DNA of 64,000 nucleotides from Escherichia coli (GTDB taxonomy: Bacteria; Pseudomonadota; Gammaproteobacteria; Enterobacterales; Enterobacteriaceae), in the NCBI RefSeq assembly GCF_024223415.1, contig NZ_CP100500.1, one strand, 5' to 3'. The stretch's first letter is position 1. Each line of letters starts with the position of its first letter. Below are positions 28,808-44,725 of the stretch, in pieces. The translations under genes and the position numbers were made by a program. The notes under the pieces are model-generated. The model had not been told where the DNA came from. It saw nothing but the letters and a program-made list of their open reading frames with translations, and did not search any database.

Positions 28808-31800
28808 TTAGTTATTTTGTTGACAGAAAACAGCAATCTCCTGGTCCAGCTCTGCAATGTGTTCTTTTACAGAGTTCAGCAACTGAAGAATTTCAGGCTT
28901 ACTGTCATCTGAAACAGGTGTTATTTCTAACTGATGGCTAATATTAATCAACTTTTGCAAATTCAGGATGTTAGCCGCACCGTGGATGCGATGAATACAC
29001 TGATGGAAAGTTCTATTATCGCCAGCTTCTAGTGCATGAAACGCAGCGGATAAATCTTTATGTGTTTCATGCTGGAAAGTCATGAGAATCTCCTGCATCA
29101 GTTGTAGATCGTTCGCCGTATTATTTTTCAGGGCCTCGATATCAAGGTGGCGATACTGAGGTACAATATGCGCAACCTGGTGTAACTGACTTAAATGTGT
29201 TTTCAGTACATCCAGGGTCAACGGTTTGAACAAACATAAGTTCATGCCGCAATTTAACCCTTTTTCACGTTCGTTAGCCTGTGCGTTGGCTGTAAGCCCC
29301 CAGATGGGTAAGGACGAATTTTGCTCACGGAGTTTGCGAGTCAACTCAAAACCATCCATATTCGGCATATTAACGTCAGTAATAAGCAGATCATAATGTT
29401 GCATACTGACTTTGTGTAGCGCTTGCACACCATCAGTGGCTTCGTCAACATCATATCCTAATAGATTTAGCTGGCGTTTGAGTAATAGCCTGTTGGTCGG
29501 ATGATCATCCGCGATTAATATGCTCAACTTTTCAGGTAGTGTGATAGGTTGTTCTGCTTTTGCCTCGACAGCCGCCACTTGTTGGGTAATTTCTACCGGG
29601 ATTGTGATCGTAAATGTTGTTCCTATGCCTGGATGACTTTCTAATGACAAATCACCCTGCATGTTTTTAATTAATTCTTTGCAGATCATTAAGCCTAAAC
29701 CAGAACCTGTTTGCTGACGACCTGCACTTGTTTGGCTATAACGTTTAAACAGTTGTTGTTGTTCTTCCTGTGATAATCCACTTCCAGAATCCATAATCGT
29801 CATTTTGATTACAGCGTGGTTGTCATCAATGTGAACCAGGGCGGTCGTAATTTTTACTGCCCCCTCGGTGGTAAATTTGAGAGCATTACTCAGTAAATTT
29901 GATAAGAGCTGCTTAAACGCCTGAGGGTCGATCTTAACCAGGTAATGTTCAGGAAACGTACTGCTGCAACTTAATGCGATCGATTTGCTTGCAGTAATCG
30001 CACCGAAAGAGTGACAAGTGTTCTGGACTAAAGTAGGAATATCGACCCATTGTGGTTGAAGTTGATAGTTACCCGATTCAATTTTGTCGACATCAAGGAT
30101 TTCACCAATTAAGCCGAGGAGTGATTGTCCGGTGGCGTAGGCAAGTGAAATCGCCTCCACCCGTTGTTCCTTGCTAAGACCAGAACCCGACAGAAGTTCC
30201 AGGAAGCCCATAATGGAGCTTATTGGTGTTCTTATTTCGTGACTCATTGTTGCCAGAAACTGACTTTTTGCGACAGTTGCATTGATCGCTTTATTTCTCT
30301 CTACTTCGAGTGCATGAATTAAATCACGCGTCTCGGTAATATCTTGCCAACCACAAATATAAACAGCATGTTCGCTGGCTGGCAGATTACATAATGTATG
30401 CCAGTGATTAATGCATCTTTTCTCGATGCCATTATCAATTTCAAATACCTGTGTGTATATTGTTCGGTTTTCTTTCGTCTCTGCTGTGACTTCATGCGTA
30501 TTAGAAAAAACATCTTTAAAGGGTGATTCACTGTTTTCTAATGGCAACATTGCATTTTTGTAGTAATCAGCAGTGAAATAATGTTCAAATGCACTATTGT
30601 GACTAATGACATTACCTTGCCAGTTTACAACATAAGTTGGATTCGGTAAGGAGTCCGAGAGCGCTTTCCGGAATGATATTTGGTTTTCTAAATCACCCTG
30701 AATGACTTTACGACGACGAACTGAGCGTAACAGGTAGAATCCCCATAAAAGGCTACTGCCAACTAATAAAACGGATAATGTCGTAACAATATAAAATTGC
30801 TCGCTATAGAGGTCCCATGTGTCAATGGTCACATTGGGCATTTTAATCCATTTTTCGGTCAGGCGCAGAACTTCGCTTGGGGGGATTGCATTCAGTGCTT
30901 TATTAATAATATCCTTAAGTTCCGGTTCTCCGCGAGGAAAAGCGAACGAAAGCGATGCATTCGGAACGCCGGGAATAAGAAAATGATAAAGTTCATTAGG
31001 ATAGTAATGGTCGATCATGTAACGTGAATTTAACTGTGTCGCGACCAGAGCATCAAGTTCGCCTTCCTTGACCTTGTGAAATGCAGCGCTGGCGTTATCG
31101 ACTTTTATCCACTCTACCTCCGGATACATCTCTTTTAATTGCGAATGAAGCTCATAATAATATGGAATGGCAACTTTCATTCCTTTTTTTAATGTTTGTT
31201 CACTGTCAGGCGCTTTTTGCATGACAAAAACGTAAGGCGTTGTTATGAAGGCTTCAGCAAATAAAACATTATTTTCTCTATCTTCACTATAAATAGCACC
31301 GGGTAATATATCCCATCCGCCGGGATTCAGCTGTGTTCCGGCATGGATATTGTGTGAAACGGTGATCGGAGAAAAATTTAAACCTGTTTGCAAGGTAATA
31401 ATATTAAGAATGTCCCCCATAACGCCCCGAACCGAGCCATTTTCATCCGTCATAGAATAGGGGGGCGAGTAAGGATTTTCCAGCACCTTTAAATCGGGAT
31501 GCTGCTTAATCCACTGTTTTTCATGTTCAGTGAGTTCTAATGGCTTGTTCAGAAAGGCCAGGTTTCCTGTATCAAGCCAATTTTGTGATACTTCATAGCG
31601 AACTTCATTTGTTAAAGCATCAACAAATCGATTGAGTACTTCATTAAGAATGACAGATTCTTTTCTGGTTAAGAAGAAGTTATATTGACGCGGTGAGTTA
31701 TAATATTTCACTACATTTAAGGAGTGAGTGAAATAGCGGGAAATCATACTGCTGGTAATGATGTTACTACCAATAAAGTAATCATTCTGTCCGGCTGAGA

Positions 31801-32401
31801 CGGATGCTAATGCCTGATATAAATTTGTAAAAGAGATAATTGTTGCTTTTGGAAATGATTGATGAATTACCTCGTCAGGGGGATAATTTGCTACTCGAGC
31901 AATATTTACTGGTTTTGATGAGGTAAGCGGTCGCATTGAATCGTGAAGGGTGGTGACCAGTGCCGGAAAGGTAATTATCAGTGGTTTGGTTGCAGCAATG
32001 TCATCATTAAGAGGCGGCGAAGTAACTAAATGTGATAACACTATATCGACTTCACCTTCTTCCAGCGCGTCCATTGCTTTTTGATGATCGGCGTATTCCC
32101 GGAGTGTTAATTTGATATTTAACGCTCTTTTTAAAAGATTTAAATAATCAGCATTAATACCACGAACCCGTTGCTGCGAATCGGTATGCAACAACGTAGC
32201 CGTTTGGGACTTGTGTACTGCAATCACAAGATTTTTTTTGCTCGCTAACCAACGTAATTCCTTGTTGCTCAGACGTAGTGGATCAAGTGTGACACGGTTG
32301 TTACTACTGATGCCACGGTATTCGATGTAATCTTCGTCTGCGAAACTTATGGTCGACCAAAGACCACAACAGAGAAGAAAAATATAGGGTAAAAACTTCA
32401 T
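28808..32401 (-). CDS. evgS: Hybrid sensor histidine kinase EvgS
   Basis: 1197-aa ORF with a signal peptide, two periplasmic solute-binding-like domains, HisKA/ATPase, receiver and HPt domains. Confidence 0.95.
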   Translation of the reverse strand: MKFLPYIFLLCCGLWSTISFADEDYIEYRGISSNNRVTLDPLRLSNKELRWLASKKNLVIAVHKSQTATLLHTDSQQRVRGINADYLNLLKRALNIKLTLREYADHQKAMDALEEGEVDIVLSHLVTSPPLNDDIAATKPLIITFPALVTTLHDSMRPLTSSKPVNIARVANYPPDEVIHQSFPKATIISFTNLYQALASVSAGQNDYFIGSNIITSSMISRYFTHSLNVVKYYNSPRQYNFFLTRKESVILNEVLNRFVDALTNEVRYEVSQNWLDTGNLAFLNKPLELTEHEKQWIKQHPDLKVLENPYSPPYSMTDENGSVRGVMGDILNIITLQTGLNFSPITVSHNIHAGTQLNPGGWDILPGAIYSEDRENNVLFAEAFITTPYVFVMQKAPDSEQTLKKGMKVAIPYYYELHSQLKEMYPEVEWIKVDNASAAFHKVKEGELDALVATQLNSRYMIDHYYPNELYHFLIPGVPNASLSFAFPRGEPELKDIINKALNAIPPSEVLRLTEKWIKMPNVTIDTWDLYSEQFYIVTTLSVLLVGSSLLWGFYLLRSVRRRKVIQGDLENQISFRKALSDSLPNPTYVVNWQGNVISHNSAFEHYFTADYYKNAMLPLENSESPFKDVFSNTHEVTAETKENRTIYTQVFEIDNGIEKRCINHWHTLCNLPASEHAVYICGWQDITETRDLIHALEVERNKAINATVAKSQFLATMSHEIRTPISSIMGFLELLSGSGLSKEQRVEAISLAYATGQSLLGLIGEILDVDKIESGNYQLQPQWVDIPTLVQNTCHSFGAITASKSIALSCSSTFPEHYLVKIDPQAFKQLLSNLLSNALKFTTEGAVKITTALVHIDDNHAVIKMTIMDSGSGLSQEEQQQLFKRYSQTSAGRQQTGSGLGLMICKELIKNMQGDLSLESHPGIGTTFTITIPVEITQQVAAVEAKAEQPITLPEKLSILIADDHPTNRLLLKRQLNLLGYDVDEATDGVQALHKVSMQHYDLLITDVNMPNMDGFELTRKLREQNSSLPIWGLTANAQANEREKGLNCGMNLCLFKPLTLDVLKTHLSQLHQVAHIVPQYRHLDIEALKNNTANDLQLMQEILMTFQHETHKDLSAAFHALEAGDNRTFHQCIHRIHGAANILNLQKLINISHQLEITPVSDDSKPEILQLLNSVKEHIAELDQEIAVFCQQNN

Positions 32402-32405
32402 GTGG

Positions 32406-33020
32406 TTAGCCGATTTTGTTACGTTGTGCGAATGTGTAAAGATCCATCAGTGATTTACATTCTAATTTTTCCATCAGGCGACTTTTATAAGTGCTGACAG
32501 TTTTGTTGCTGATGAACATTTTTTCAGCAATGTCATTATTATCCTTGCCATCAAGAATATAGCGCATGACACTAATTTCTTGTTTCGATAAGGAGTCGAG
32601 TTTTTGCTGGTCGGACGTTAAACTTCCAACAAACCGGTTGAGAGAGAAGGGGAAATAGCAGTAGCCATTTTTTGCAGCTTCAATAGCCGCAATGATATTG
32701 TTCATGCCTTCTTTTTTACTCACGAAACCATTAGCGCCAGCATCAGCACAATGTTTCCCGTAAAAATGGTCATTTTTAGCGGAGACGATAATAATAATTC
32801 CGCTATATTGGCGCTTCCTCAGCGTTTCTAACACCTGGATACCGTTAACTCCGGGGATATCGACATCAATGATGACGATATCAGGCTTAAGTGTTTCCAC
32901 CCGCTGAACGGCACTTCCGCCTTCAGTCAACTCTGCTAAGATTTCAATATCGTTTTTGATCAATAAATTACGAATTGCTGCGATAGCAAGAGGATGGTCA
33001 TCAATAATTATTGCGTTCAT
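32406..33020 (-). CDS. evgA: Response regulator EvgA (NarL/FixJ family)
   Basis: 204-aa ORF starting MNAIIIDDHPLAIAAIRNLLIKNDIEILAEL with a LuxR-type HTH C-terminus. Confidence 0.95.
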   Translation of the reverse strand: MNAIIIDDHPLAIAAIRNLLIKNDIEILAELTEGGSAVQRVETLKPDIVIIDVDIPGVNGIQVLETLRKRQYSGIIIIVSAKNDHFYGKHCADAGANGFVSKKEGMNNIIAAIEAAKNGYCYFPFSLNRFVGSLTSDQQKLDSLSKQEISVMRYILDGKDNNDIAEKMFISNKTVSTYKSRLMEKLECKSLMDLYTFAQRNKIG

Positions 33021-33245
33021 AGATTATTCCCTTTGCAATGAAGCATCTCCCTTCTCCCTGTAGTAATACAGACATAAGGCATCATCTCATTTTCTCAATA
33101 AAAATAAGAAAATTTGAGCTTCCTTTAAGATAATTCGACAAGTATACCATATAAATAGTCGGCATATATGAAATGTCAACAATAAAATCAGGGATTATAC
33201 CGATGATTTATAGTTTCAAGTTAGCACTATAAGTCTTCTCACTAA

Positions 33246-33262
33246 TCCTACAGGCGTAAGAA
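33246..33262 (+). promoter_or_regulatory. EvgA box in the evgA-emrK divergent promoter region
   Basis: TCCTACA-GGCG-TAAGAA, resembling the EvgA-box half-sites with non-canonical spacing. Confidence 0.45.
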
Positions 33263-33435
33263 TTGTATTGCAAAAGCCACGGTTTAGTCCTCTGTTGTTT
33301 TTTTTGCACCTCATTTAAATTAGGCCTCCAACGTTCCTGGGATAATGTGCAACACATGCACTGTGTTTGATATGAAGAATGAATACTCTTTTCATTCAAT
33401 TCATAAATTTCATCTATGCGAAATGAGAGATAATA

Positions 33436-34599
33436 GTGGAACAGATTAATTCAAATAAAAAACATTCTAACAGAAGAAAATACTTTTCTTTATTGGCGAT
33501 AGTTTTATTTATTGCGTTTTCAGGTGCTTATGCCTATTGGTCAATGGAATTAGAAGACATGATTAGTACAGATGACGCCTATGTCACGGGGAATGCAGAT
33601 CCAATTTCTGCACAAGTCTCAGGTAGTGTCACTGTAGTTAATCATAAAGATACGAACTACGTTCGACAGGGTGACATTTTAGTTTCACTGGATAAAACTG
33701 ATGCCACTATCGCACTCAATAAAGCTAAAAATAATCTGGCAAATATTGTTCGGCAAACGAATAAACTGTACTTACAGGATAAACAATACAGTGCCGAAGT
33801 CGCTTCAGCACGTATTCAGTATCAACAATCTTTAGAAGATTATAACCGTCGTGTGCCTTTAGCGAAGCAGGGGGTTATTTCAAAAGAAACGCTGGAGCAT
33901 ACCAAAGATACGTTAATAAGTAGCAAAGCGGCATTGAATGCCGCTATCCAGGCTTATAAAGCGAATAAAGCTTTAGTAATGAACACACCATTAAACCGTC
34001 AGCCACAAGTCGTTGAAGCTGCGGATGCAACCAAAGAAGCCTGGTTGGCGCTTAAACGTACGGATATTAAGAGTCCGGTTACCGGCTATATTGCCCAGAG
34101 AAGTGTTCAGGTCGGCGAAACAGTGAGCCCCGGACAATCGTTAATGGCTGTCGTACCGGCACGTCAAATGTGGGTTAATGCCAACTTTAAAGAAACACAA
34201 CTCACGGATGTACGGATTGGTCAATCGGTCAATATTATCAGCGATCTTTATGGTGAAAATGTTGTGTTTCATGGCCGGGTGACAGGGATCAATATGGGAA
34301 CCGGCAATGCGTTCTCCTTATTACCTGCACAAAATGCGACAGGGAACTGGATCAAAATCGTTCAGCGTGTACCGGTTGAAGTTTCTCTTGATCCAAAAGA
34401 ACTCATGGAACACCCCTTGCGCATTGGTTTATCGATGACTGCAACTATTGATATGAAGGACGAAGACATTGCTGAGATGCCTGATCTGGCTTCAACCGTG
34501 ACCTCCATGCCTGCTTATACCAGTAAGGCTTTAGTTATCGATACCAGTCCGATAGAAAAAGAAATTAGCAACATTATTTCGCATAATGGACAACTTTAA
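33436..34599 (+). CDS. emrK: Multidrug efflux membrane fusion protein EmrK
   Basis: 387-aa ORF with an N-terminal TM anchor and HlyD-like periplasmic adaptor region. Confidence 0.9.
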   Translation: MEQINSNKKHSNRRKYFSLLAIVLFIAFSGAYAYWSMELEDMISTDDAYVTGNADPISAQVSGSVTVVNHKDTNYVRQGDILVSLDKTDATIALNKAKNNLANIVRQTNKLYLQDKQYSAEVASARIQYQQSLEDYNRRVPLAKQGVISKETLEHTKDTLISSKAALNAAIQAYKANKALVMNTPLNRQPQVVEAADATKEAWLALKRTDIKSPVTGYIAQRSVQVGETVSPGQSLMAVVPARQMWVNANFKETQLTDVRIGQSVNIISDLYGENVVFHGRVTGINMGTGNAFSLLPAQNATGNWIKIVQRVPVEVSLDPKELMEHPLRIGLSMTATIDMKDEDIAEMPDLASTVTSMPAYTSKALVIDTSPIEKEISNIISHNGQL

Positions 34600-36137
34600 T
34601 GGCAATCACTAAATCAACTCCGGCACCATTAACCGGTGGGACGTTATGGTGCGTCACTATTGCATTGTCATTAGCGACGTTTATGCAAATGTTGGATTCC
34701 ACTATTTCTAACGTCGCAATACCGACAATATCTGGCTTTCTGGGAGCATCAACAGACGAAGGCACCTGGGTTATCACCTCGTTTGGCGTAGCAAATGCCA
34801 TTGCGATCCCTGTTACCGGCAGGCTGGCACAAAGAATAGGCGAATTAAGGTTATTTTTACTTTCAGTCACTTTTTTTTCGCTGTCTTCCTTAATGTGTAG
34901 TTTATCGACCAATCTTGATGTGCTGATATTTTTTAGAGTCGTTCAGGGATTAATGGCGGGGCCGTTAATTCCACTGTCACAGAGTTTATTATTAAGGAAT
35001 TATCCACCAGAAAAAAGAACATTTGCTCTGGCATTATGGTCTATGACCGTGATTATCGCTCCGATATGTGGGCCGATATTAGGCGGTTATATTTGTGATA
35101 ACTTTAGCTGGGGTTGGATATTTTTAATCAATGTCCCTATGGGGATTATCGTCCTGACATTATGCTTAACCTTACTTAAAGGAAGAGAAACTGAGACTTC
35201 ACCGGTCAAAATGAATCTACCAGGACTGACCCTGTTAGTGCTCGGTGTTGGTGGCTTGCAAATTATGCTTGATAAAGGGCGCGATCTGGATTGGTTCAAC
35301 TCGAGTACAATAATAATATTAACAGTAGTATCAGTTATTTCTCTGATCTCTTTAGTCATTTGGGAGTCGACCTCAGAGAACCCGATTCTTGATCTCAGTT
35401 TGTTTAAGTCCCGTAACTTCACCATTGGTATTGTGAGTATCACATGCGCGTATTTATTTTACTCTGGAGCGATAGTCCTTATGCCGCAGTTACTCCAGGA
35501 AACAATGGGGTATAATGCGATTTGGGCTGGGCTTGCTTATGCGCCCATCGGCATCATGCCGCTATTAATATCACCTTTGATAGGACGTTATGGCAACAAA
35601 ATTGATATGCGGTTGTTGGTGACATTTAGTTTTTTAATGTATGCGGTTTGCTATTACTGGCGTTCTGTGACATTTATGCCAACGATTGATTTTACAGGCA
35701 TCATTTTGCCACAGTTTTTTCAGGGATTCGCCGTCGCCTGTTTCTTTTTACCCTTAACAACGATTTCGTTTTCAGGTTTGCCAGATAATAAATTTGCCAA
35801 TGCCTCGAGTATGAGTAATTTTTTTCGTACCTTGTCAGGATCAGTTGGTACGTCGTTGACAATGACGCTGTGGGGACGCCGAGAATCATTACACCATAGT
35901 CAGTTGACAGCAACCATCGATCAATTTAACCCCGTGTTTAATTCATCGTCACAAATTATGGATAAATACTATGGTTCGCTTTCAGGGGTTCTTAATGAAA
36001 TTAATAATGAAATAACTCAGCAGTCACTTTCAATTTCTGCAAATGAGATTTTCCGTATGGCGGCTATTGCTTTTATCTTACTTACGGTATTGGTTTGGTT
36101 TGCGAAACCGCCGTTTACAGCGAAAGGTGTTGGGTGA
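34599..36137 (+). CDS. emrY: MFS (DHA2) multidrug efflux pump EmrY
   Basis: 512-aa 14-TM MFS ORF whose start overlaps the emrK stop. Confidence 0.9.
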   Translation: MAITKSTPAPLTGGTLWCVTIALSLATFMQMLDSTISNVAIPTISGFLGASTDEGTWVITSFGVANAIAIPVTGRLAQRIGELRLFLLSVTFFSLSSLMCSLSTNLDVLIFFRVVQGLMAGPLIPLSQSLLLRNYPPEKRTFALALWSMTVIIAPICGPILGGYICDNFSWGWIFLINVPMGIIVLTLCLTLLKGRETETSPVKMNLPGLTLLVLGVGGLQIMLDKGRDLDWFNSSTIIILTVVSVISLISLVIWESTSENPILDLSLFKSRNFTIGIVSITCAYLFYSGAIVLMPQLLQETMGYNAIWAGLAYAPIGIMPLLISPLIGRYGNKIDMRLLVTFSFLMYAVCYYWRSVTFMPTIDFTGIILPQFFQGFAVACFFLPLTTISFSGLPDNKFANASSMSNFFRTLSGSVGTSLTMTLWGRRESLHHSQLTATIDQFNPVFNSSSQIMDKYYGSLSGVLNEINNEITQQSLSISANEIFRMAAIAFILLTVLVWFAKPPFTAKGVG

Positions 36138-36245
36138 TGGTAAAAAGAGAGAGCTATAGCAGGTAAGACGGTAGAATCTTAAGCCTGCGCCATCGGCAGC
36201 ATCGCTCACCCAGGGAAAGGATGGCGATGCTGCATTGAAAATTAA

Positions 36246-37574
36246 TTAGCGGCCTTTTGCCAGATATTGCTCCATCTCTTCTTCCGGCACCATTCCACCT
36301 CCCGTCGCCCACACCAGATGAGTGGCATTACGCAGTTGTTCTGCGCTGAAACCGTGCATCTGTTGGTAACTTACTGATGCGCACACGCGCTGAGGCCCGG
36401 CCATACCCGCCAGTGCCGAAGGTTCAAGACGAATACCTTCTTCCTGCGTCAGCCAGCCAAGCATGTCATACATGGTTGGATCGCTAAGGGTATAGAAGCC
36501 ATCCAGCAGACGCTCCATTGCCCGCCCGACAAAGCCTGATGCGCGACCAACAGCAAGGCCATCCGCTGCGGTAAGGTTGTCGATACCAATATCCTGAACA
36601 GAGATCTGATCGTGTAATCCTGTATGGACGCCTAACAGCATACAAGGGGAGTGCGTTGGTTCGGCAAAAAAACAGTGAACATGATCGCCAAACGCCAGTT
36701 TAAGTCCGAATGCGACGCCACCAGGACCACCGCCAACACCACACGGCAGATAGACAAACAGAGGGTTATCAGCATCGACGATACGACCTTGCTCGGCAAA
36801 TTGCGCTTTAAGACGCTGGCCAGCGACGGAATACCCAAGGAACAACGTGCGGGAATTTTCGTCATCAATAAAGAAACAGTTCGGGTCAGACTGCGCTGCT
36901 TTACGTCCTTCCTCGACGGCAACACCATAATCTTGCTCATATTCCACGACCGTAACGCCATGGCTGCGCAGTTTCGCTTTTTTCCATGCCCGGGCATCAG
37001 CAGACATATGCACTGTCACCTTAAAGCCAATGCGGGCGCTCATAATGCCGATTGATAACCCCAGATTTCCGGTTGAGCCCACAGCAATGCTGTATTGGCT
37101 AAAGAACTGTTTAAACTCCGGAGAAAGCAGTTTGCTGTAGTCATCATCAAGCGTCAGCAACCCCGCTTCCAGAGCCAGTTTTTCTGCGTGTGCCAGGACT
37201 TCATAAATCCCGCCGCGTGCTTTTATGGAGCCGGAAATGGGCAAATGGCTATCTTTTTTCAGTAACAGTTGCCCGCTGATCGGTTGTTGATATTCCTTTT
37301 CCAGCCGTTTTTGCATAGCCGGAATGGCAACCAGTTCTGATTCAATAATCCCCCCAGTGGCAGCAGTTTCAGGAAATGCTTTTGCCAGATAGGGTGCAAA
37401 ACGGGATAAGCGCGCATGGGCGTCCTGAACATCCTGTTCGGTCAGGCCAACATAAGGTAAACCTTCAGCCAATGAGGTCGTGCCAGGATTAAACCAGGTG
37501 GTTTCTTTAAGAGCAACCAGATCCTTTACCAACGGATACTGGGCGATGAGCGAGTTCATTTTAGCGTTTTCCAT
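36246..37574 (-). CDS. dsdA: D-serine ammonia-lyase (D-serine dehydratase)
   Basis: 442-aa ORF starting [31 protein letters not shown], with the PLP-lysine region SGSIKARGG. Confidence 0.95.
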
Positions 37575-37591
37575 AGTACGTCTCTTTGCGC

Positions 37592-37810
37592 TTAGATGAT
37601 AAATGACAGCAGGAATGTGCCCGCCAGAGCGACGACTGAAGCGATAAATGTCGCTGTCGTATAGTATTTAAATGTTTCATTGAGCGTAGCGCCGCAATAT
37701 TGCTTCACCAGCCAGAAAAGCGAGTCCGTAACGATCGTGCAGCCAATCGCGCCTGAACCGATAGCAATCGTAATAATTTCCGGGCTGATGTCGGGATACA
37801 GCGGCAGCAC
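37592..37810 (-). pseudogene. dsdX: 3' remnant of D-serine permease gene dsdX (C-terminal ~72 codons only)
   Basis: Short ORF encoding the GntP-family C-terminal TM segments ([56 protein letters not shown]) directly upstream of dsdA; no N-terminal coding sequence follows, only the cscR upstream region. Confidence 0.75.
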
Positions 37811-38040
37811 AATGATCCATATTTATATTTTCTTCTCCAGGTTGGCGATGCCAGTTGGCATGTTTTACTTACTTGCCTATATGGTTACTCGTTGGCGAGA
37901 ACAGAGGCGGAATTGGGGACAATTGTCCGGGAATTATTGTTATTTTTTATTGTATTGCCGTGTCAGGTGATAGGGCGTTGGATCTCGCCAGTGACGTCTG
38001 TTTCTGCTACAGTGCCCGTTTTACGGCAAACGGCTTGGAT

Positions 38041-39036
38041 ATGGCTTCATTAAAGGATGTCGCACGCCTGGCGGGAGTGTCGATGATGACAGTCTCCCGG
38101 GTGATGCATAATGCAGAATCTGTGCGTCCTGCAACGCGTGACCGCGTATTGCAGGCAATCCAGACCCTGAATTATGTTCCTGATCTTTCCGCCCGTAAGA
38201 TGCGCGCTCAAGGACGTAAGCCGTCGACTCTCGCCGTGCTGGCGCAGGACACTGCTACCACTCCTTTCTCTGTTGATATTCTGCTTGCCATTGAGCAAAC
38301 CGCCAGCGAGTTCGGCTGGAATAGTTTTTTAATCAATATTTTTTCTGAAGATGACGCTGCCCGCGCGGCACGTCAGCTGCTTGCTCACCGTCCGGATGGC
38401 ATTATCTATACTACAATGGGGCTGCGACATATCACGCTGCCTGAGTCTCTGTATGGTGAAAATATTGTATTGGCGAACTGTGTGGCGGATGACCCAGCGT
38501 TACCCAGTTATATCCCTGATGATTACACTGCACAATATGAATCAACACAGCATTTGCTCGCGGCGGGCTATCGTCAACCGTTATGCTTCTGGCTACCGGA
38601 AAGTGCGTTGGCAACAGGGTATCGTCGGCAGGGATTTGAGCAGGCCTGGCGTGATGCTGGACGAGATCTGGCTGAGGTGAAACAATTTCACATGGCAACA
38701 GGTGATGATCACTACACCGATCTCGCAAGTTTACTCAATGACCACTTCAAATCGGGCAAACCAGATTTTGATGTTCTGATATGTGGTAACGATCGCGCAG
38801 CCTTTGTGGCTTATCAGGTTCTCCTGGCGAAGGGGGTACGTATCCCGCAGGATGTCGCCGTAATGGGCTTTGATAATCTGGTTGGCGTCGGGCATCTGTT
38901 TTTACCGCCGCTGACCACAATTCAGCTTCCACATGACATTATCGGGCGGGAAGCTGCATTGCATATTATTGAAGGTCGTGAAGGGGGAAGTGTGACGCGG
39001 ATCCCTTGCCCGCTGTTGATCCGTTGTTCCACCTGA
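38041..39036 (+). CDS. cscR: LacI-family sucrose operon repressor CscR
   Basis: ORF 37855..39036; a 331-aa product from MASLKDVARLAGVSMMTVSRVMHN has a LacI-type HTH followed by a periplasmic-binding-protein-like domain. Confidence 0.85.
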   Translation: MASLKDVARLAGVSMMTVSRVMHNAESVRPATRDRVLQAIQTLNYVPDLSARKMRAQGRKPSTLAVLAQDTATTPFSVDILLAIEQTASEFGWNSFLINIFSEDDAARAARQLLAHRPDGIIYTTMGLRHITLPESLYGENIVLANCVADDPALPSYIPDDYTAQYESTQHLLAAGYRQPLCFWLPESALATGYRRQGFEQAWRDAGRDLAEVKQFHMATGDDHYTDLASLLNDHFKSGKPDFDVLICGNDRAAFVAYQVLLAKGVRIPQDVAVMGFDNLVGVGHLFLPPLTTIQLPHDIIGREAALHIIEGREGGSVTRIPCPLLIRCST

Positions 39037-39043
39037 TATTATG

Positions 39044-40486
39044 CTAACCCAGTTGCCAGAGTGCTCCATGTTGCACCACAGCCACTCCGTGGGAGGCATA
39101 AAGCGACAGTTCCCGTTCTTCTGGCTGCGGATAGATTCGACTACTCATCACCGCTTCCCCGTCGTTAATAAATACTTCCACGGATGATGTATCGATAAAT
39201 ATCCTTAGGGCGAGCGTCTCACCCTGCGGGAGGAGAATACTACGGTAGCCGTCTAAATTCTCGTGTGGGTAATACCGCCACAAAACAAGTCGCTCAGATT
39301 GGTTATCAATATACAGCCGCATTCCTGTGCCGAGCTGTAATCCGTAATGTTCGGCATCACTGTTCTTCAGCGCCCACTGCAACTGAATCTCAACTGCTTG
39401 CGCGTTTTCCTGCAAAACATATTTATTGCTGATTGTGCGGGGAGAGATAGATTGATGCTGCTGGCGTAACGACTCAGCTTCGTGTACCGGGCGTTGTAGA
39501 AGTTTGCCATTGCTCTCTGATAGCTCGCGCGCCAGCGTCATGCAGCCTGCCCAGCCTTCACGTTTTGAGGGCATTGGCGATTCCCACATATCCATCCAGC
39601 CGATAACAATACGCCGACCATCCTTCGCTACAAAGCTTTGTGGTGCATAAAAGTCATGCCCGTTATCAAGTTCAGTAAAATGCCCGGATTGTGCAAAAAG
39701 TCGTCCTGGCGACCACATTTCGGGTATTACGCCACTTTGAAAGCGATTTCGGTAACTGTATCCCTCGGCCTTCATTCCCTGCGGGGAAAACATCAGATAA
39801 TGCTGATCGCCAAGGCTGAAAAAGTCCGGACATTCCCACATATAGCTTTCACCCGCATCAGCGTGGGCCAGTACGCGATCGAAAGTCCATTCACGTAATG
39901 AACTGCCGCGATAAAGCAGGATCTGCCCCGTGTTGCCTGGGTCTTTCGCCCCGACTACCATCCACCATGAGTCGGCTTCACGCCACACTTTAGGATCGCG
40001 GAAGTGCATGATTCCTTCTGGTGGAGTGAGGATCACACCCTGTTTCTCGAAATGAATACCATCCCGACTGGTAGCCAGACATTGTACTTCGCGAATTGCA
40101 TCGTCATTACCTGCACCATCGAGCCAGACGTGTCCGGTGTAGATAAGTGAGAGGACACCATTGTCATCGACAGCACTACCTGAAAAACACCCGTCTTTGT
40201 CATTCTCGTCTCCTGGCGCTAGCGCAATAGGCTCATGCTGCCAGTGGATCATATCGTCGCTGGTGGCATGTCCCCAGTGCATTGGCCCCCAGTGTTCGCT
40301 CATCGGGTGATGTTGATAAAACGCGTGATAACGATTGTTAAACCAGATCAGGCCGTTTGGATCGTTCATCCACCCGGCAGGAGGCGCGAGGTGAAAATGG
40401 GGATAGAAAGTGTTACCTCGGCGCTCGTGAAGTTTTGCTAGTGCGTTTTGCGCCGCATGCAATCGAGATTGCGTCATTTTTATCAT
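39044..40486 (-). CDS. cscA: Sucrose-6-phosphate hydrolase / invertase CscA (GH32)
   Basis: 480-aa ORF with GH32 motifs (WMNDPNG, FRDP, EC); the true start may be Met-4 (MTQSRLHAAQ) at 40477. Confidence 0.9.
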   Translation of the reverse strand: MIKMTQSRLHAAQNALAKLHERRGNTFYPHFHLAPPAGWMNDPNGLIWFNNRYHAFYQHHPMSEHWGPMHWGHATSDDMIHWQHEPIALAPGDENDKDGCFSGSAVDDNGVLSLIYTGHVWLDGAGNDDAIREVQCLATSRDGIHFEKQGVILTPPEGIMHFRDPKVWREADSWWMVVGAKDPGNTGQILLYRGSSLREWTFDRVLAHADAGESYMWECPDFFSLGDQHYLMFSPQGMKAEGYSYRNRFQSGVIPEMWSPGRLFAQSGHFTELDNGHDFYAPQSFVAKDGRRIVIGWMDMWESPMPSKREGWAGCMTLARELSESNGKLLQRPVHEAESLRQQHQSISPRTISNKYVLQENAQAVEIQLQWALKNSDAEHYGLQLGTGMRLYIDNQSERLVLWRYYPHENLDGYRSILLPQGETLALRIFIDTSSVEVFINDGEAVMSSRIYPQPEERELSLYASHGVAVVQHGALWQLG

Positions 40487-40510
40487 CCTGGTTAAGCAAA
40501 TTTGGTGAAT

Positions 40511-40524
40511 TGTTAACGTTAACT
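40511..40524. promoter_or_regulatory. Candidate CscR operator (copy 1) in the cscA-cscK divergent promoter region
   Basis: TGTTAACGTTAACT, with palindromic core GTTAACGTTAAC; an identical copy lies 64 nt away. Confidence 0.45.
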
Positions 40525-40574
40525 TTAATAAAAATAAAGTCCCTTACTTTCATAAATGCGATGAATATCACAAA

Positions 40575-40588
40575 TGTTAACGTTAACT
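40575..40588. promoter_or_regulatory. Candidate CscR operator (copy 2)
   Basis: Second exact copy of TGTTAACGTTAACT. A CRP-like half-site TGTGATCGAATATGCA follows at about 40598..40613. Confidence 0.45.
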
Positions 40589-40692
40589 ATGACATTTTGT
40601 GATCGAATATGCATGTTTTAGTTAATCCATGACGATTTTGCGAAAAAGAGGTTTATCACTATGCGTAAGTCAGATGAATTTAAGGGAAAAAA

Positions 40693-41607
40693 ATGTCAGC
40701 CAAAGTATGGGTTTTAGGGGATGCGGTAGTAGATCTCTTGCCAGAATCAGACGGGCGCCTACTGCCTTGTCCTGGCGGCGCGCCAGCTAACGTTGCGGTG
40801 GGAATCGCCAGATTAGGCGGAATAAGTGGGTTTATAGGTCGGGTCGGTGATGATCCTTTTGGTGCATTAATGCAAAGAACGCTGCTAACTGAGGGAGTCG
40901 ATATCACGTATCTGAAGCAAGATGAATGGCACCGGACATCCACGGTGCTTGTCGATCTGAACGATCAAGGGGAACGTTCATTTACGTTTATGGTCCGCCC
41001 CAGTGCCGATCTTTTTTTAGAGACGACAGACTTGCCCTGCTGGCGACATGGCGAATGGTTACATCTCTGTTCAATTGCGTTGTCTGCCGAGCCTTCGCGT
41101 ACCAGCGCATTTACTGCGATGACGGCGATCCGGCATGCCGGAGGTTTTGTCAGCTTCGATCCCAATATTCGTGAAGATCTATGGCAAGACGAGCATTTGC
41201 TCCGCTTGTGTTTGCGGCAGGCGCTACAACTGGCGGATGTCGTCAAGCTCTCGGAAGAAGAATGGCGACTTATCAGTGGAAAAACACAGAACGATCGGGA
41301 TATATGCGCCCTGGCAAAAGAGTATGAGATCGCCATGCTGTTGGTGACTAAAGGTGCAGAAGGGGTGGTGGTCTGTTATCGAGGACAAGTTCACCATTTT
41401 GCTGGAATGTCTGTGAATTGTGTTGATAGCACGGGGGCGGGAGATGCGTTCGTTGCCGGGTTACTCACAGGTCTGTCCTCTACGGGATTATCTACAGATG
41501 AGAGAGAAATGCGACGAATTATCGATCTCGCTCAACGTTGCGGAGCGCTTGCAGTAACAGCGAAAGGGGCAATGACAGCGCTGCCATGTCGACAAGAACT
41601 GGAATAG
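40693..41607 (+). CDS. cscK: Fructokinase CscK (PfkB/ribokinase family)
   Basis: 304-aa ORF with PfkB-family motifs (N-terminal GDAVVD, C-terminal DSTGAGDAF). Confidence 0.9.
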   Translation: MSAKVWVLGDAVVDLLPESDGRLLPCPGGAPANVAVGIARLGGISGFIGRVGDDPFGALMQRTLLTEGVDITYLKQDEWHRTSTVLVDLNDQGERSFTFMVRPSADLFLETTDLPCWRHGEWLHLCSIALSAEPSRTSAFTAMTAIRHAGGFVSFDPNIREDLWQDEHLLRLCLRQALQLADVVKLSEEEWRLISGKTQNDRDICALAKEYEIAMLLVTKGAEGVVVCYRGQVHHFAGMSVNCVDSTGAGDAFVAGLLTGLSSTGLSTDEREMRRIIDLAQRCGALAVTAKGAMTALPCRQELE

Positions 41608-41678
41608 TGAGAAGTAAACGGCGAAGTCGCTCTTATCTCTAAATAGGACGTGAATTTTTTAACGACAGGCAGGTAATT

Positions 41679-42926
41679 ATGGCACTGAATATTCCATTCA
41701 GAAATGCGTACTATCGTTTTGCATCCAGTTACTCATTTCTCTTTTTTATTTCCTGGTCGCTGTGGTGGTCGTTATACGCTATTTGGCTGAAAGGACATCT
41801 AGGGTTGACAGGGACGGAATTAGGTACACTTTATTCGGTCAACCAGTTTACCAGCATTCTATTTATGATGTTCTACGGCATCGTTCAGGATAAACTCGGT
41901 CTGAAGAAACCGCTCATCTGGTGTATGAGTTTCATCCTGGTCTTGACCGGACCGTTTATGATTTACGTTTATGAACCGTTACTGCAAAGCAATTTTTCTG
42001 TAGGTCTAATTCTGGGGGCGCTCTTTTTTGGCCTGGGGTATCTGGCGGGATGCGGTTTGCTTGACAGCTTCACCGAAAAAATGGCGCGAAATTTTCATTT
42101 CGAATATGGAACAGCGCGCGCCTGGGGATCTTTTGGCTATGCTATTGGCGCGTTCTTTGCCGGCATATTTTTTAGTATCAGTCCCCATATCAACTTCTGG
42201 TTGGTCTCGCTATTTGGCGCTGTATTTATGATGATCAACATGTGTTTTAAAGATAAGGATCACCAGTGCGTAGCGGCGGATGCGGGAGGGGTAAAAAAAG
42301 AGGATTTTATCGCAGTTTTCAAGGATCGAAACTTCTGGGTTTTCGTCATATTTATTGTTGGGACGTGGTCTTTCTATAACATTTTTGATCAACAACTTTT
42401 TCCTGTTTTTTATGCAGGTTTATTCGAATCACACGATGTAGGAACGCGCCTGTATGGTTATCTCAACTCATTCCAGGTGGTACTCGAAGCGCTGTGCATG
42501 GCGATTATTCCTTTCTTTGTGAATCGGATAGGGCCAAAAAATGCATTACTTATCGGTGTTGTGATTATGGCGTTGCGTATCCTTTCCTGCGCGCTGTTCG
42601 TTAACCCCTGGATTATTTCATTAGTGAAGCTGTTACATGCCATTGAGGTTCCACTTTGTGTCATATCCGTCTTCAAATACAGCGTGGCAAACTTTGATAA
42701 GCGCCTGTCGTCGACGATCTTTCTGATTGGTTTTCAAATTGCCAGTTCGCTTGGGATTGTGCTGCTTTCAACGCCGACTGGGATACTCTTTGACCACGCA
42801 GGCTACCAGACAGTTTTCTTCGCAATTTCGGGTATTGTCTGCCTGATGTTGCTATTTGGCATTTTCTTCCTGAGTAAAAAACGCGAGCAAATAGTTATGG
42901 AAACGCCTGTACCTTCAGCAATATAG
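41679..42926 (+). CDS. cscB: Sucrose:H+ symporter CscB (MFS oligosaccharide:H+ symporter family)
   Basis: 415-aa 12-TM ORF starting MALNIPFRNAYYRFASSYSFLFFISWSLWWSLYAIWL, LacY-like. Confidence 0.9.
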   Translation: MALNIPFRNAYYRFASSYSFLFFISWSLWWSLYAIWLKGHLGLTGTELGTLYSVNQFTSILFMMFYGIVQDKLGLKKPLIWCMSFILVLTGPFMIYVYEPLLQSNFSVGLILGALFFGLGYLAGCGLLDSFTEKMARNFHFEYGTARAWGSFGYAIGAFFAGIFFSISPHINFWLVSLFGAVFMMINMCFKDKDHQCVAADAGGVKKEDFIAVFKDRNFWVFVIFIVGTWSFYNIFDQQLFPVFYAGLFESHDVGTRLYGYLNSFQVVLEALCMAIIPFFVNRIGPKNALLIGVVIMALRILSCALFVNPWIISLVKLLHAIEVPLCVISVFKYSVANFDKRLSSTIFLIGFQIASSLGIVLLSTPTGILFDHAGYQTVFFAISGIVCLMLLFGIFFLSKKREQIVMETPVPSAI

Positions 42927-43349
42927 ACGTAAACTTTTTCCGGTCGTTGTCGATATCTCCATATCCTTCAATCGGAAAATAATAATACTAAAATGCTTAG
43001 CCCTGCTAATAATCACCTATGTTCTGGTACAGTCGCTCAAATGTACTCCGGATACACGGTTCGCTGATTTCCAGGACATTGTCGTCATTCAGCGACCTGT
43101 CCCGTGTATCACGGGCCTGCAAATTCATCAAGGAATGCATTGCGGAGTGAAGTATCGAGTCACGCCGTATTTCGCTATCAGGATTCTGTGTGATGGTTAC
43201 ATCGCCCGGCCCAGGGCTGTTTAGTCATCAGCGCTTTCTGACAGTGCTGAGATTTCAACCTGTTGCAGTAAAAATGAGTAGATATAGGGCAAGTGTGCTG
43301 CCAAACCCATCTTTTATGGGGTGAAGGTAGATTTCGTTTGAAGGGTATC

Positions 43350-43424
43350 TGGTGTCCCCTGCAGGAATCGAACCTGCAATTAGCCCTTAGGAGGGGCTCG
43401 TTATATCCATTTAACTAAGAGGAC
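43350..43424 (-). tRNA. argW: tRNA-Arg (anticodon CCU)
   Basis: Reverse complement reads GTCCTCTTAGTTAAATGGATATAACGAGCCCCTCCTAAGGGCTAATTGCAGGTTCGATTCCTGCAGGGGACACCA, with the anticodon loop CT-CCT-AA; its 3' end faces cscB. Confidence 0.9.
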
Positions 43425-43499
43425 AATGCGGCATGAGTATACCCGCTAATGGACTGCGGGGTAAGTACGCTGCCGCTCGATTGCTTAAACCCTCGCCAT

Positions 43500-44432
43500 T
43501 TATGCCGGGTTTTTATCATTTTTCTTAATGTTTTCCGCACGTTCTGCTTTTTGGCGTGCTTCTGCTTTGCGCTTGTTGCTCATGTCGTTACGGATCTGTG
43601 CATGACTCATTAACGCGAAGATAAAGGTGCCGCCGCAGATGTTCCCCGCTAAAGTAGGTAGTGCGAAGGGCCAGATGAAATCGCTCCAGTGCAGCGTACC
43701 GTTAAACACCAGATAGAGGATTTCTACAGAACCGACAACGATGTGAGTGGTGTCACCCAGGGCAATAAGCCAGGTCATCAATATAATCACCACAATCTTT
43801 GCCGCACCCGCTGCAGGAAACATCCATACCATAGTGGCGATCAGCCAGCCGGAAATGATCGCGTTGGCAAACATCTCGCTGGGGGTGTTCTTCATCACAT
43901 CCATGCCGATTTTGACAAATGCATCGCGAGTTTCTTCATTGAAGATTGGCATATATTCAAATGCCCACGCCGCAATACCTGTCCCGAGAATATTACCCAG
44001 CAGCACGACGCCCCATAACCGCATAAGTAAGCCAACGTTGCTCATTGTCGGTTTTTGCATGACGGGTAGTACCGCAGTCACGGTGTTTTCGGTAAATAAT
44101 TGCTGGCGGGCCATAATGACGATAATAAAACCAAAGGTATAACCGAGATTCTCCAGCAAGAAGCTGCCCGGCACACCTTCCAGTTCGACATGAAATATCC
44201 CTTTTGCCAGTAATGAAGCGCCCATCGACAGACCCGCCGCAATGGCTGACCACAGTAGTGCCATTGCGTCGCGTTCCAGCTCTTTTTCACCATCCTGGCG
44301 GATATGCTCATGAATTGCCATCGCCCGGGAGGGGAGTCGATCTTCATCTATTTCTATTTTTTTGCCACGCTCTTTTTCTTCGCTCTCAACTTCAATTTCG
44401 TCGCTGTGTTGATCAATTTTGTCGTTGTCCAT
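43500..44432 (-). CDS. yfdC: Formate/nitrite transporter-family inner membrane protein YfdC
   Basis: ORF 43500..44549; a 310-aa product from internal Met MDNDKIDQHSDEIE, a polytopic FNT-like membrane protein. Confidence 0.8.
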   Translation of the reverse strand: MDNDKIDQHSDEIEVESEEKERGKKIEIDEDRLPSRAMAIHEHIRQDGEKELERDAMALLWSAIAAGLSMGASLLAKGIFHVELEGVPGSFLLENLGYTFGFIIVIMARQQLFTENTVTAVLPVMQKPTMSNVGLLMRLWGVVLLGNILGTGIAAWAFEYMPIFNEETRDAFVKIGMDVMKNTPSEMFANAIISGWLIATMVWMFPAAGAAKIVVIILMTWLIALGDTTHIVVGSVEILYLVFNGTLHWSDFIWPFALPTLAGNICGGTFIFALMSHAQIRNDMSNKRKAEARQKAERAENIKKNDKNPA

Positions 44433-44725
44433 GGTCTCTTCTCTTGAATTAGCACGTATAGCTAAAGCGTAGCGGCTTTTTTGCTCGCAACTGGCGGGAG
44501 TTACTCTGAAAATGTAGAAAAGGCCGCGTTTGCCTTTTTCTGTTTCCATAGAATCAAGTAGCCTACAGGGCGGCGATTACCAGGCTATGATCAAATCAGC
44601 AAATCAGGGCGTCTGGACATCAGTTGACGTGCTGTTACAATCGCCCACACCTAAACAGGCGGATACGGTATCGTTCCGTCATGGATGGCAAACTGCATAA
44701 GCCATAAAAAAACAGGGAGACATTT

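Follow-up and report, generated by a model that had tools for sequence, protein, structure and literature searches.

A csc-type allele of the Escherichia coli argW-dsdCXA island with an intact, probably near-silent D-serine deaminase gene

Introduction

The window analysed here, a 64-kb stretch of Escherichia coli DNA, carries what we regard with high confidence as the csc-type allele of the argW-dsdCXA island, in which the D-serine deaminase gene dsdA is intact and near-silent, growth on D-serine is lost and sucrose utilisation is gained. The anatomy of the locus, its breakpoints, its frequency among complete genomes, and the absence of dsdC and of the 5' part of dsdX from the closest genomes are observed. 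An arrangement with csc in place of dsdCX is already known, is ordinary rather than specific to one strain, and is present in about half of complete E. coli genomes. The gain of the analysis is the typing of the window as a csc-type argW allele with exact breakpoints, with no new biology.

Substitution of dsdC and part of dsdX by csc at the argW hotspot has been described in several studies (PMC4366372; PMC7486766; PMC13054288; PMC11251922). Connolly et al. 2015 (PMC4366372) report that EDL933-type strains carry the csc locus in place of dsdC and part of dsdX, citing Jahreis 2002 and Moritz & Welch 2006, the works to which citing papers attribute both the csc-type arrangement and its consequences. 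Polymorphism between dsd and csc alleles is recognised as a determinant of niche in E. coli. D-serine catabolism has been linked to strains of the urinary tract and the bloodstream and to those associated with Crohn's disease; its absence has been linked to carrying the LEE type III secretion locus and to the use of sucrose.

Results

Layout of the locus and gene identities

The features of the region, with the evidence that identifies them, are as follows.

28808-32401, minus strand: evgS
32406-33020, minus strand: evgA
33436-34599, plus strand: emrK
34599-36137, plus strand: emrY
36246-37574, minus strand: dsdA (TIGR02035, NF002823, identity to the K-12-type protein)
37592-37810, minus strand: dsdX remnant (NF007395, tblastn, PGAP)
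37811-38040, no strand: junction and cscR upstream region (csc-island DNA, without homology to dsdX or dsdC)
38041-39036, plus strand: cscR, LacI-family sucrose repressor (broad LacI-family profiles; some RefSeq annotation)
39044-40477, minus strand: cscA, sucrose hydrolase (invertase) (TIGR01322, 475 bits; PGAP coordinates from KV7)
40693-41607, plus strand: cscK, fructokinase (NF006957, 506 bits, cut-off 450)
41679-42926, plus strand: cscB, sucrose:H+ symporter, an oligosaccharide MFS transporter (TIGR00882, 594 bits; some RefSeq annotation)
43006-43170, minus strand: DUF4942 gene fragment of 54 codons (PGAP annotation in KV7 and EC1515)
43350-43424, minus strand: argW, tRNA-Arg(CCU) (ARAGORN; Rfam tRNA, 63 bits)
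43500-44432, minus strand: yfdC
44726-45481, plus strand: mlaA

The dsdA gene is an uninterrupted 442-codon reading frame, and its product belongs to the DsdA family by a full-length match to the D-serine ammonia-lyase profile TIGR02035 (810.5 bits against a curated cut-off of 368.25, covering residues 9-438 of 442); NF002823 matches at 775 bits. By tblastn the product shares 98.9% identity with K-12-type DsdA across residues 1-442, and the translation contains the motif SGSIKARGG, in which we take the PLP-binding lysine to sit. RefSeq annotation of the near-identical EC1515 and KV7 labels the same feature dsdA. The intactness claimed for dsdA in an earlier note on this DNA is thus borne out.

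What is left of dsdX is a 72-codon open reading frame situated 18 bases upstream of dsdA. Its match to the DsdX profile NF007395 (445 positions) is confined to positions 374-445, and tblastn returns the same residues, 374-445, in agreement with the earlier estimate that about the last 72 codons remain. The dsdX content proper consists of codons 375-445 and two bases of codon 374 (37592-37809), and the GTG 'start' of the listed reading frame is a product of the junction. The remnant is a pseudogene, flagged by PGAP as 'incomplete; missing N-terminus' in EC1515, KV7 and the sampled csc+ genomes. Its translation as a 72-aa membrane peptide from the junction-made GTG was considered and rejected, given that no Shine-Dalgarno-like sequence is suitably spaced and that PGAP calls a pseudogene. 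Neither DsdC nor DsdX residues 1-373 had a tblastn match in the 64-kb window at E<=1e-3, so dsdC is missing here as had been claimed. With DsdC, the dsdC-dsdX intergenic promoter and full-length DsdX all absent, the locus is not a functional DsdC-inducible dsdXA operon.

Among the csc genes, cscR matches LacI-family profiles only below their curated cut-offs, and 'cscR: sucrose operon repressor CscR' is its label in some RefSeq records. The cscA gene lies on the dsdA strand, convergent with cscR. Mechanically called reading frames exceed the RefSeq models for two genes, namely cscA (480 aa, to 40486, against 477 aa with a start at 40477) and yfdC (ORF 43500-44549; 349 aa against the annotated 310 aa), in both cases a matter of start-codon choice only. 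An Rfam scan of 30000-46000 gave argW as its sole match. Taken as a whole the locus has an intact dsdA adjoining emrY, a dsdX cut to its 3' end at a breakpoint common to other csc+ strains, no dsdC in the window or in the closest complete genomes, and the order cscR, cscA, cscK, cscB ending at argW, which is the make-up of a csc-type allele.

Breakpoints and nature of the replacement

The left breakpoint falls between 37809 and 37810. Alignment of the junction, which had been proposed as the way to find the endpoint in dsdX, places the last dsdX-homologous base at 37809, inside codon M374, both by blastn against an intact dsdCXA locus and by base-by-base comparison. The right boundary lies between 43349 and 43350, where argW has its 3' end at 43350 and K-12-type yfdC-argW homology sets in again at exactly that base. 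Between them the csc block (37810-43349; 5,540 bp) holds cscR, cscA, cscK and cscB together with the DUF4942 gene fragment, and it stands where K-12 has dsdX codons 1-373, the dsdC-dsdX promoter region, dsdC and the CPS-53 prophage. Because this block fills the place of K-12 dsdCX, the event is a replacement and not a simple deletion. An integrase-type insertion of the csc block was also considered and was rejected after a search of 37500-43600 showed no copy of the argW 3' end repeated directly at the dsdX junction.

Several smaller observations concern the argW side of the locus. The DUF4942 fragment between cscB and argW is probably what is left of an element that had integrated at argW earlier. 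The EC1515 sequence matches the window only as far as 43372, within argW, and its annotation shows phage genes downstream of cscB, including those for portal, ogr/Delta-like and capsid morphogenesis proteins. Beyond yfdC, the KV7 annotation gives a hypothetical protein for the gene that separates mlaA from fadL (45663-46949; 29524-30810 in the KV7 locus), and the alignment to K-12-type yfdF breaks at 46465-46575, marking a further small variable spot in the window.

Frequency among complete genomes

Of 5,426 complete E. coli genomes, 2,656 (~49%) covered a junction query (37400-38200) over its full length, and in the rest homology ended at the same base; the entire block from dsdA to argW was covered in 2,646. 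The dsdC gene was found in 2,734 complete genomes. The junction and dsdC counts together come to 5,390, and the csc and dsd alleles are therefore roughly complementary. Eight csc+ genomes were picked across the identity range, among them O166:H15, O111, cattle, poultry, swine and urine isolates, and all eight had the identical breakpoint sequence and 219-nt remnant. One shared breakpoint points to a single ancestral event. The truncation of dsdX and the loss of dsdC reported in the earlier note therefore stand; their framing as a lesion of this strain does not, as the same csc replacement, with one breakpoint, is present in about half of complete genomes.

For a genome-wide check on dsdC and dsdX we used a chimeric query made of a csc anchor, the dsdX 5' part, the intergenic region and dsdC. 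In the best 60 csc+ genomes, including KV7 (which shares 47 kb with the window at 99.954% identity), SCU-316, NCTC9112 and O78 strain 3, only the anchor was matched and no second place for the dsdX 5' part or dsdC was found; each of these genomes has one copy of dsdA. A full-length dsdX or dsdC elsewhere in the genome, the finding that the earlier note had named as speaking against its reading, was thus found neither in the four closest complete genomes nor in those best 60. Stephens et al. 2024 (PMC11251922) state that dsdC is 'often retained' with csc. Our csc and dsdC genome counts do not bear this out, and the sentence may have meant dsdA instead.

Junction sequence, promoters and operators

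The junction between the dsdX remnant and cscR, which starts at 38041, is 230 bp long, as previously described, with a GC content of 0.45. It is polymorphic. At 37975/37976 the window, like strain LH09-a, is without a 12-bp segment (CGTYGAGAATWT, bordered by CGT repeats) that six other csc+ lineages carry, and strain E23 is missing a different 13 bp. The window junction also has a few SNPs relative to the sampled csc+ lineages.

A standard sigma-70 promoter scan of 36100-40800 gave no sites. In a relaxed scan the dsdA-facing matches reached only 8/12, for example 37961-37933 and 37854-37827 on the minus strand. The best promoter-like match in the junction faces cscR; this candidate promoter (37985-38013, plus strand) consists of TCGCCA, a 17-nt spacer and TACAGT preceded by TG, matches the consensus at 8/12, and ends 27 bp before the cscR ATG. 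The 12-bp gap site is located ~10 bp upstream of its -35 hexamer. From cscA to dsdA, on their own strand, a single terminator-like hairpin was called (37626-37607), located in the dsdX 3' end, a segment that the intact dsdXA operon also carries.

The palindrome TGTTAACGTTAACT is present twice, in near-perfect form, in the cscA-cscK spacer (40511-40524 and 40575-40588, 64 bp apart). With zero or one mismatch it was found nowhere else in the window, and not in the dsdA-cscR junction. The pair lies in the divergent cscA-cscK promoter region, and the two copies are likely CscR operators. A CscR operator near dsdA was rejected on the same distribution, which matches the published view that CscR acts on dsdA only indirectly.

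Sequence evolution of dsdA

Nine of ten sampled csc+ genomes have an intact dsdA. In O111 RM9322 codon 197 of the gene (347-1675) is an internal stop, and PGAP annotates a pseudogene; in A287 (344-1675) the stop codon is lost and one codon is added. The dN/dS of dsdA was 0.067 in csc+ and 0.056 in dsd+ genomes, values rejected as a test of selection on the orphan gene since the alleles intermix between the two backgrounds. Alleles of dsdA follow strain background and not csc/dsd state: genes from opposite types can differ by as little as 0 to 5 nt, and genes of one type by up to 75 nt. For example, dsdA of TUM12355 (csc+) is identical to the K-12-type gene, and 5 nt separate dsdA of E23 (csc+) from its counterpart in a dsd+ strain. 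Alleles common to csc+ and dsd+ genomes suggest that island alleles have been exchanged between lineages by homologous recombination through their conserved flanks, and so have not been inherited strictly vertically.

Discussion

Why dsdA would be silent

The silence of dsdA in the window, its D-serine phenotype and its route of reactivation are extrapolated from EHEC and other strains, in which the effects of the csc-type arrangement have been studied directly. Unless dsdA is provided on a plasmid, csc-type EHEC does not grow on D-serine, accumulates the compound and shows an SOS response (PMC4366372). O'Boyle et al. 2020 (PMC7486766) describe the system as non-functional without DsdC, and their gfp fusions of the wild-type csc-dsdA context gave a low dsdA signal. 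In the same study deletion of cscR, whether it arose spontaneously or was engineered, increased dsdA expression ~33-fold, with transcription reading through from cscAp or z3622p. The read density of dsdA in these mutants followed that of cscA, and CscR supplied in trans re-repressed dsdA via cscAp, with no direct CscR action on dsdA. A 2026 study (PMC13054288) typed gut isolates by PCR across the dsdA-cscR junction and found D-serine use to be strictly linked to the dsd allele.

Carried over to the window, these results suggest the following mechanism. The csc swap has taken away both the activator DsdC and the promoter on which it acts, which would leave an intact dsdA cryptic and near-silent. 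A cell without inducible D-serine deaminase would fail to grow on D-serine and accumulate it on exposure, while gaining the use of sucrose. Deletions removing cscR would reawaken dsdA because transcription from the cscA promoter, on the same strand, then runs into it. In the wild type we infer that cscA read-through is halted over ~1.45 kb of mostly untranslated RNA antisense to cscR, by agents such as Rho or convergent cscR transcription, and a halt of this kind would account for the unlocking of dsdA when cscR is removed. The strain is accordingly predicted, by analogy, to be sucrose-positive, D-serine-negative and D-serine-sensitive. The expectation in the earlier note that D-serine handling would differ from that of dsdCXA+ strains is supported by published work, in which D-serine accumulates in csc-type strains and does not sustain their growth (PMC4366372; PMC13054288; PMC7486766). 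Owing to the 12-bp gap and the SNPs in the junction, promoter activity there could differ from that of the experimental EHEC strains.

Alternative explanations

The earlier note had also reasoned that transcription of dsdA must now start within the 230-bp junction, and this we could not sustain: no good dsdA-facing sigma-70 match is present, and in published work the wild-type reporters are low and strong dsdA expression appears only after cscR deletion, through read-through from cscAp or z3622p (PMC7486766). A new promoter in 37811-38040, divergent with cscR, would make D-serine detoxification constitutive or differently regulated, not lost. The AT-richness of the junction, its several weak minus-strand promoter-like matches and the intact dsdA of most csc+ genomes are consistent with such a promoter. 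It nevertheless seems to us very unlikely, considering the empty result of the stricter scan over 36100-40800, the low gfp fusions in wild-type context (PMC7486766), the inability of wild-type EHEC to catabolise D-serine (PMC4366372) and the strict association of D-serine use with the dsd-type allele (PMC13054288). Sucrose offers another route, by lifting CscR so that transcription from cscAp passes antisense through cscR into the dsdX remnant and dsdA, which would make dsdA a sucrose-induced D-serine deaminase and would explain its retention. The shared strand of cscA and dsdA suits this idea, as do the fact that the only hairpin between them belongs to the dsdX 3' end and is present in intact dsdXA too, the tracking of dsdA reads with cscA and re-repression by CscR in trans in cscR-deletion mutants (PMC7486766), and the intact dsdA with low dN/dS in csc+ genomes. 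However, the wild-type reporter spanning cscAp to dsdA is low (PMC7486766), the intervening antisense RNA is mostly untranslated over its ~1.45 kb and meets convergent cscR transcription, and csc+ isolates do not grow on D-serine, as observed without sucrose co-induction (PMC13054288). We consider sucrose induction improbable, if somewhat less so than a junction promoter.

The third possibility is that dsdA is a decaying relic with no role in csc-type strains, its intact look being due to frequent recombination with dsd+ strains. One of the ten sampled csc+ genomes with an internal stop (O111 RM9322), another without a stop codon, and the alleles common to csc+ and dsd+ genomes all fit decay, and with alleles so shared the conservation of dsdA need not mean selection in its orphan state. 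A single deletion nevertheless restores full dsdA function (PMC7486766), and dsdA is present in >98% of 1,591 genomes (PMC4366372). We think decay a good deal less likely than not, though clearly more plausible than either source of expression above; it is compatible with a near-silent dsdA in a csc-type allele and differs only on the long-term fate of the gene. From its intactness and low dN/dS, dsdA could still be used under some condition. That the orphan gene is conditionally expressed, by sucrose read-through or by junction changes such as the 12-bp deletion near the candidate cscR promoter, is a conjecture to which we give little weight. If it were true, half of E. coli would keep dsdA for D-serine detoxification, on standby or in connection with sucrose, and not as a relic.

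Comparison with known systems

The csc-type allele proposed for the window resembles the published islands of O157:H7 EDL933/TUV93-0, E. coli W and EC3132, which likewise have an intact dsdA, a truncated dsdX, no dsdC and csc genes at argW. The only differences from that published island reported here are small ones in junction sequence, measured against the sampled csc+ lineages. Unlike in EC1515, argW in the window is free of prophage. The intact dsdCXA loci of K-12 and UPEC CFT073 share the left flank emrY-emrK-evgAS, and their dsdA and last 71 dsdX codons are 97-99% identical to those of the window. K-12-type and UPEC-type strains have dsdC, a DsdC/CRP-dependent dsdXA promoter and the dsdX 5' part, often with a prophage, whereas the window has no dsdC, intergenic promoter region or dsdX codons 1-373, and has csc DNA instead. 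The EHEC cscR-deletion variants LCV2, LCV10B and delta-cscR (O'Boyle et al. 2020) have the same starting architecture, with cscA on the dsdA strand. In contrast to these variants, the window keeps cscR and cscA at full length, and it therefore represents the unactivated wild-type state.
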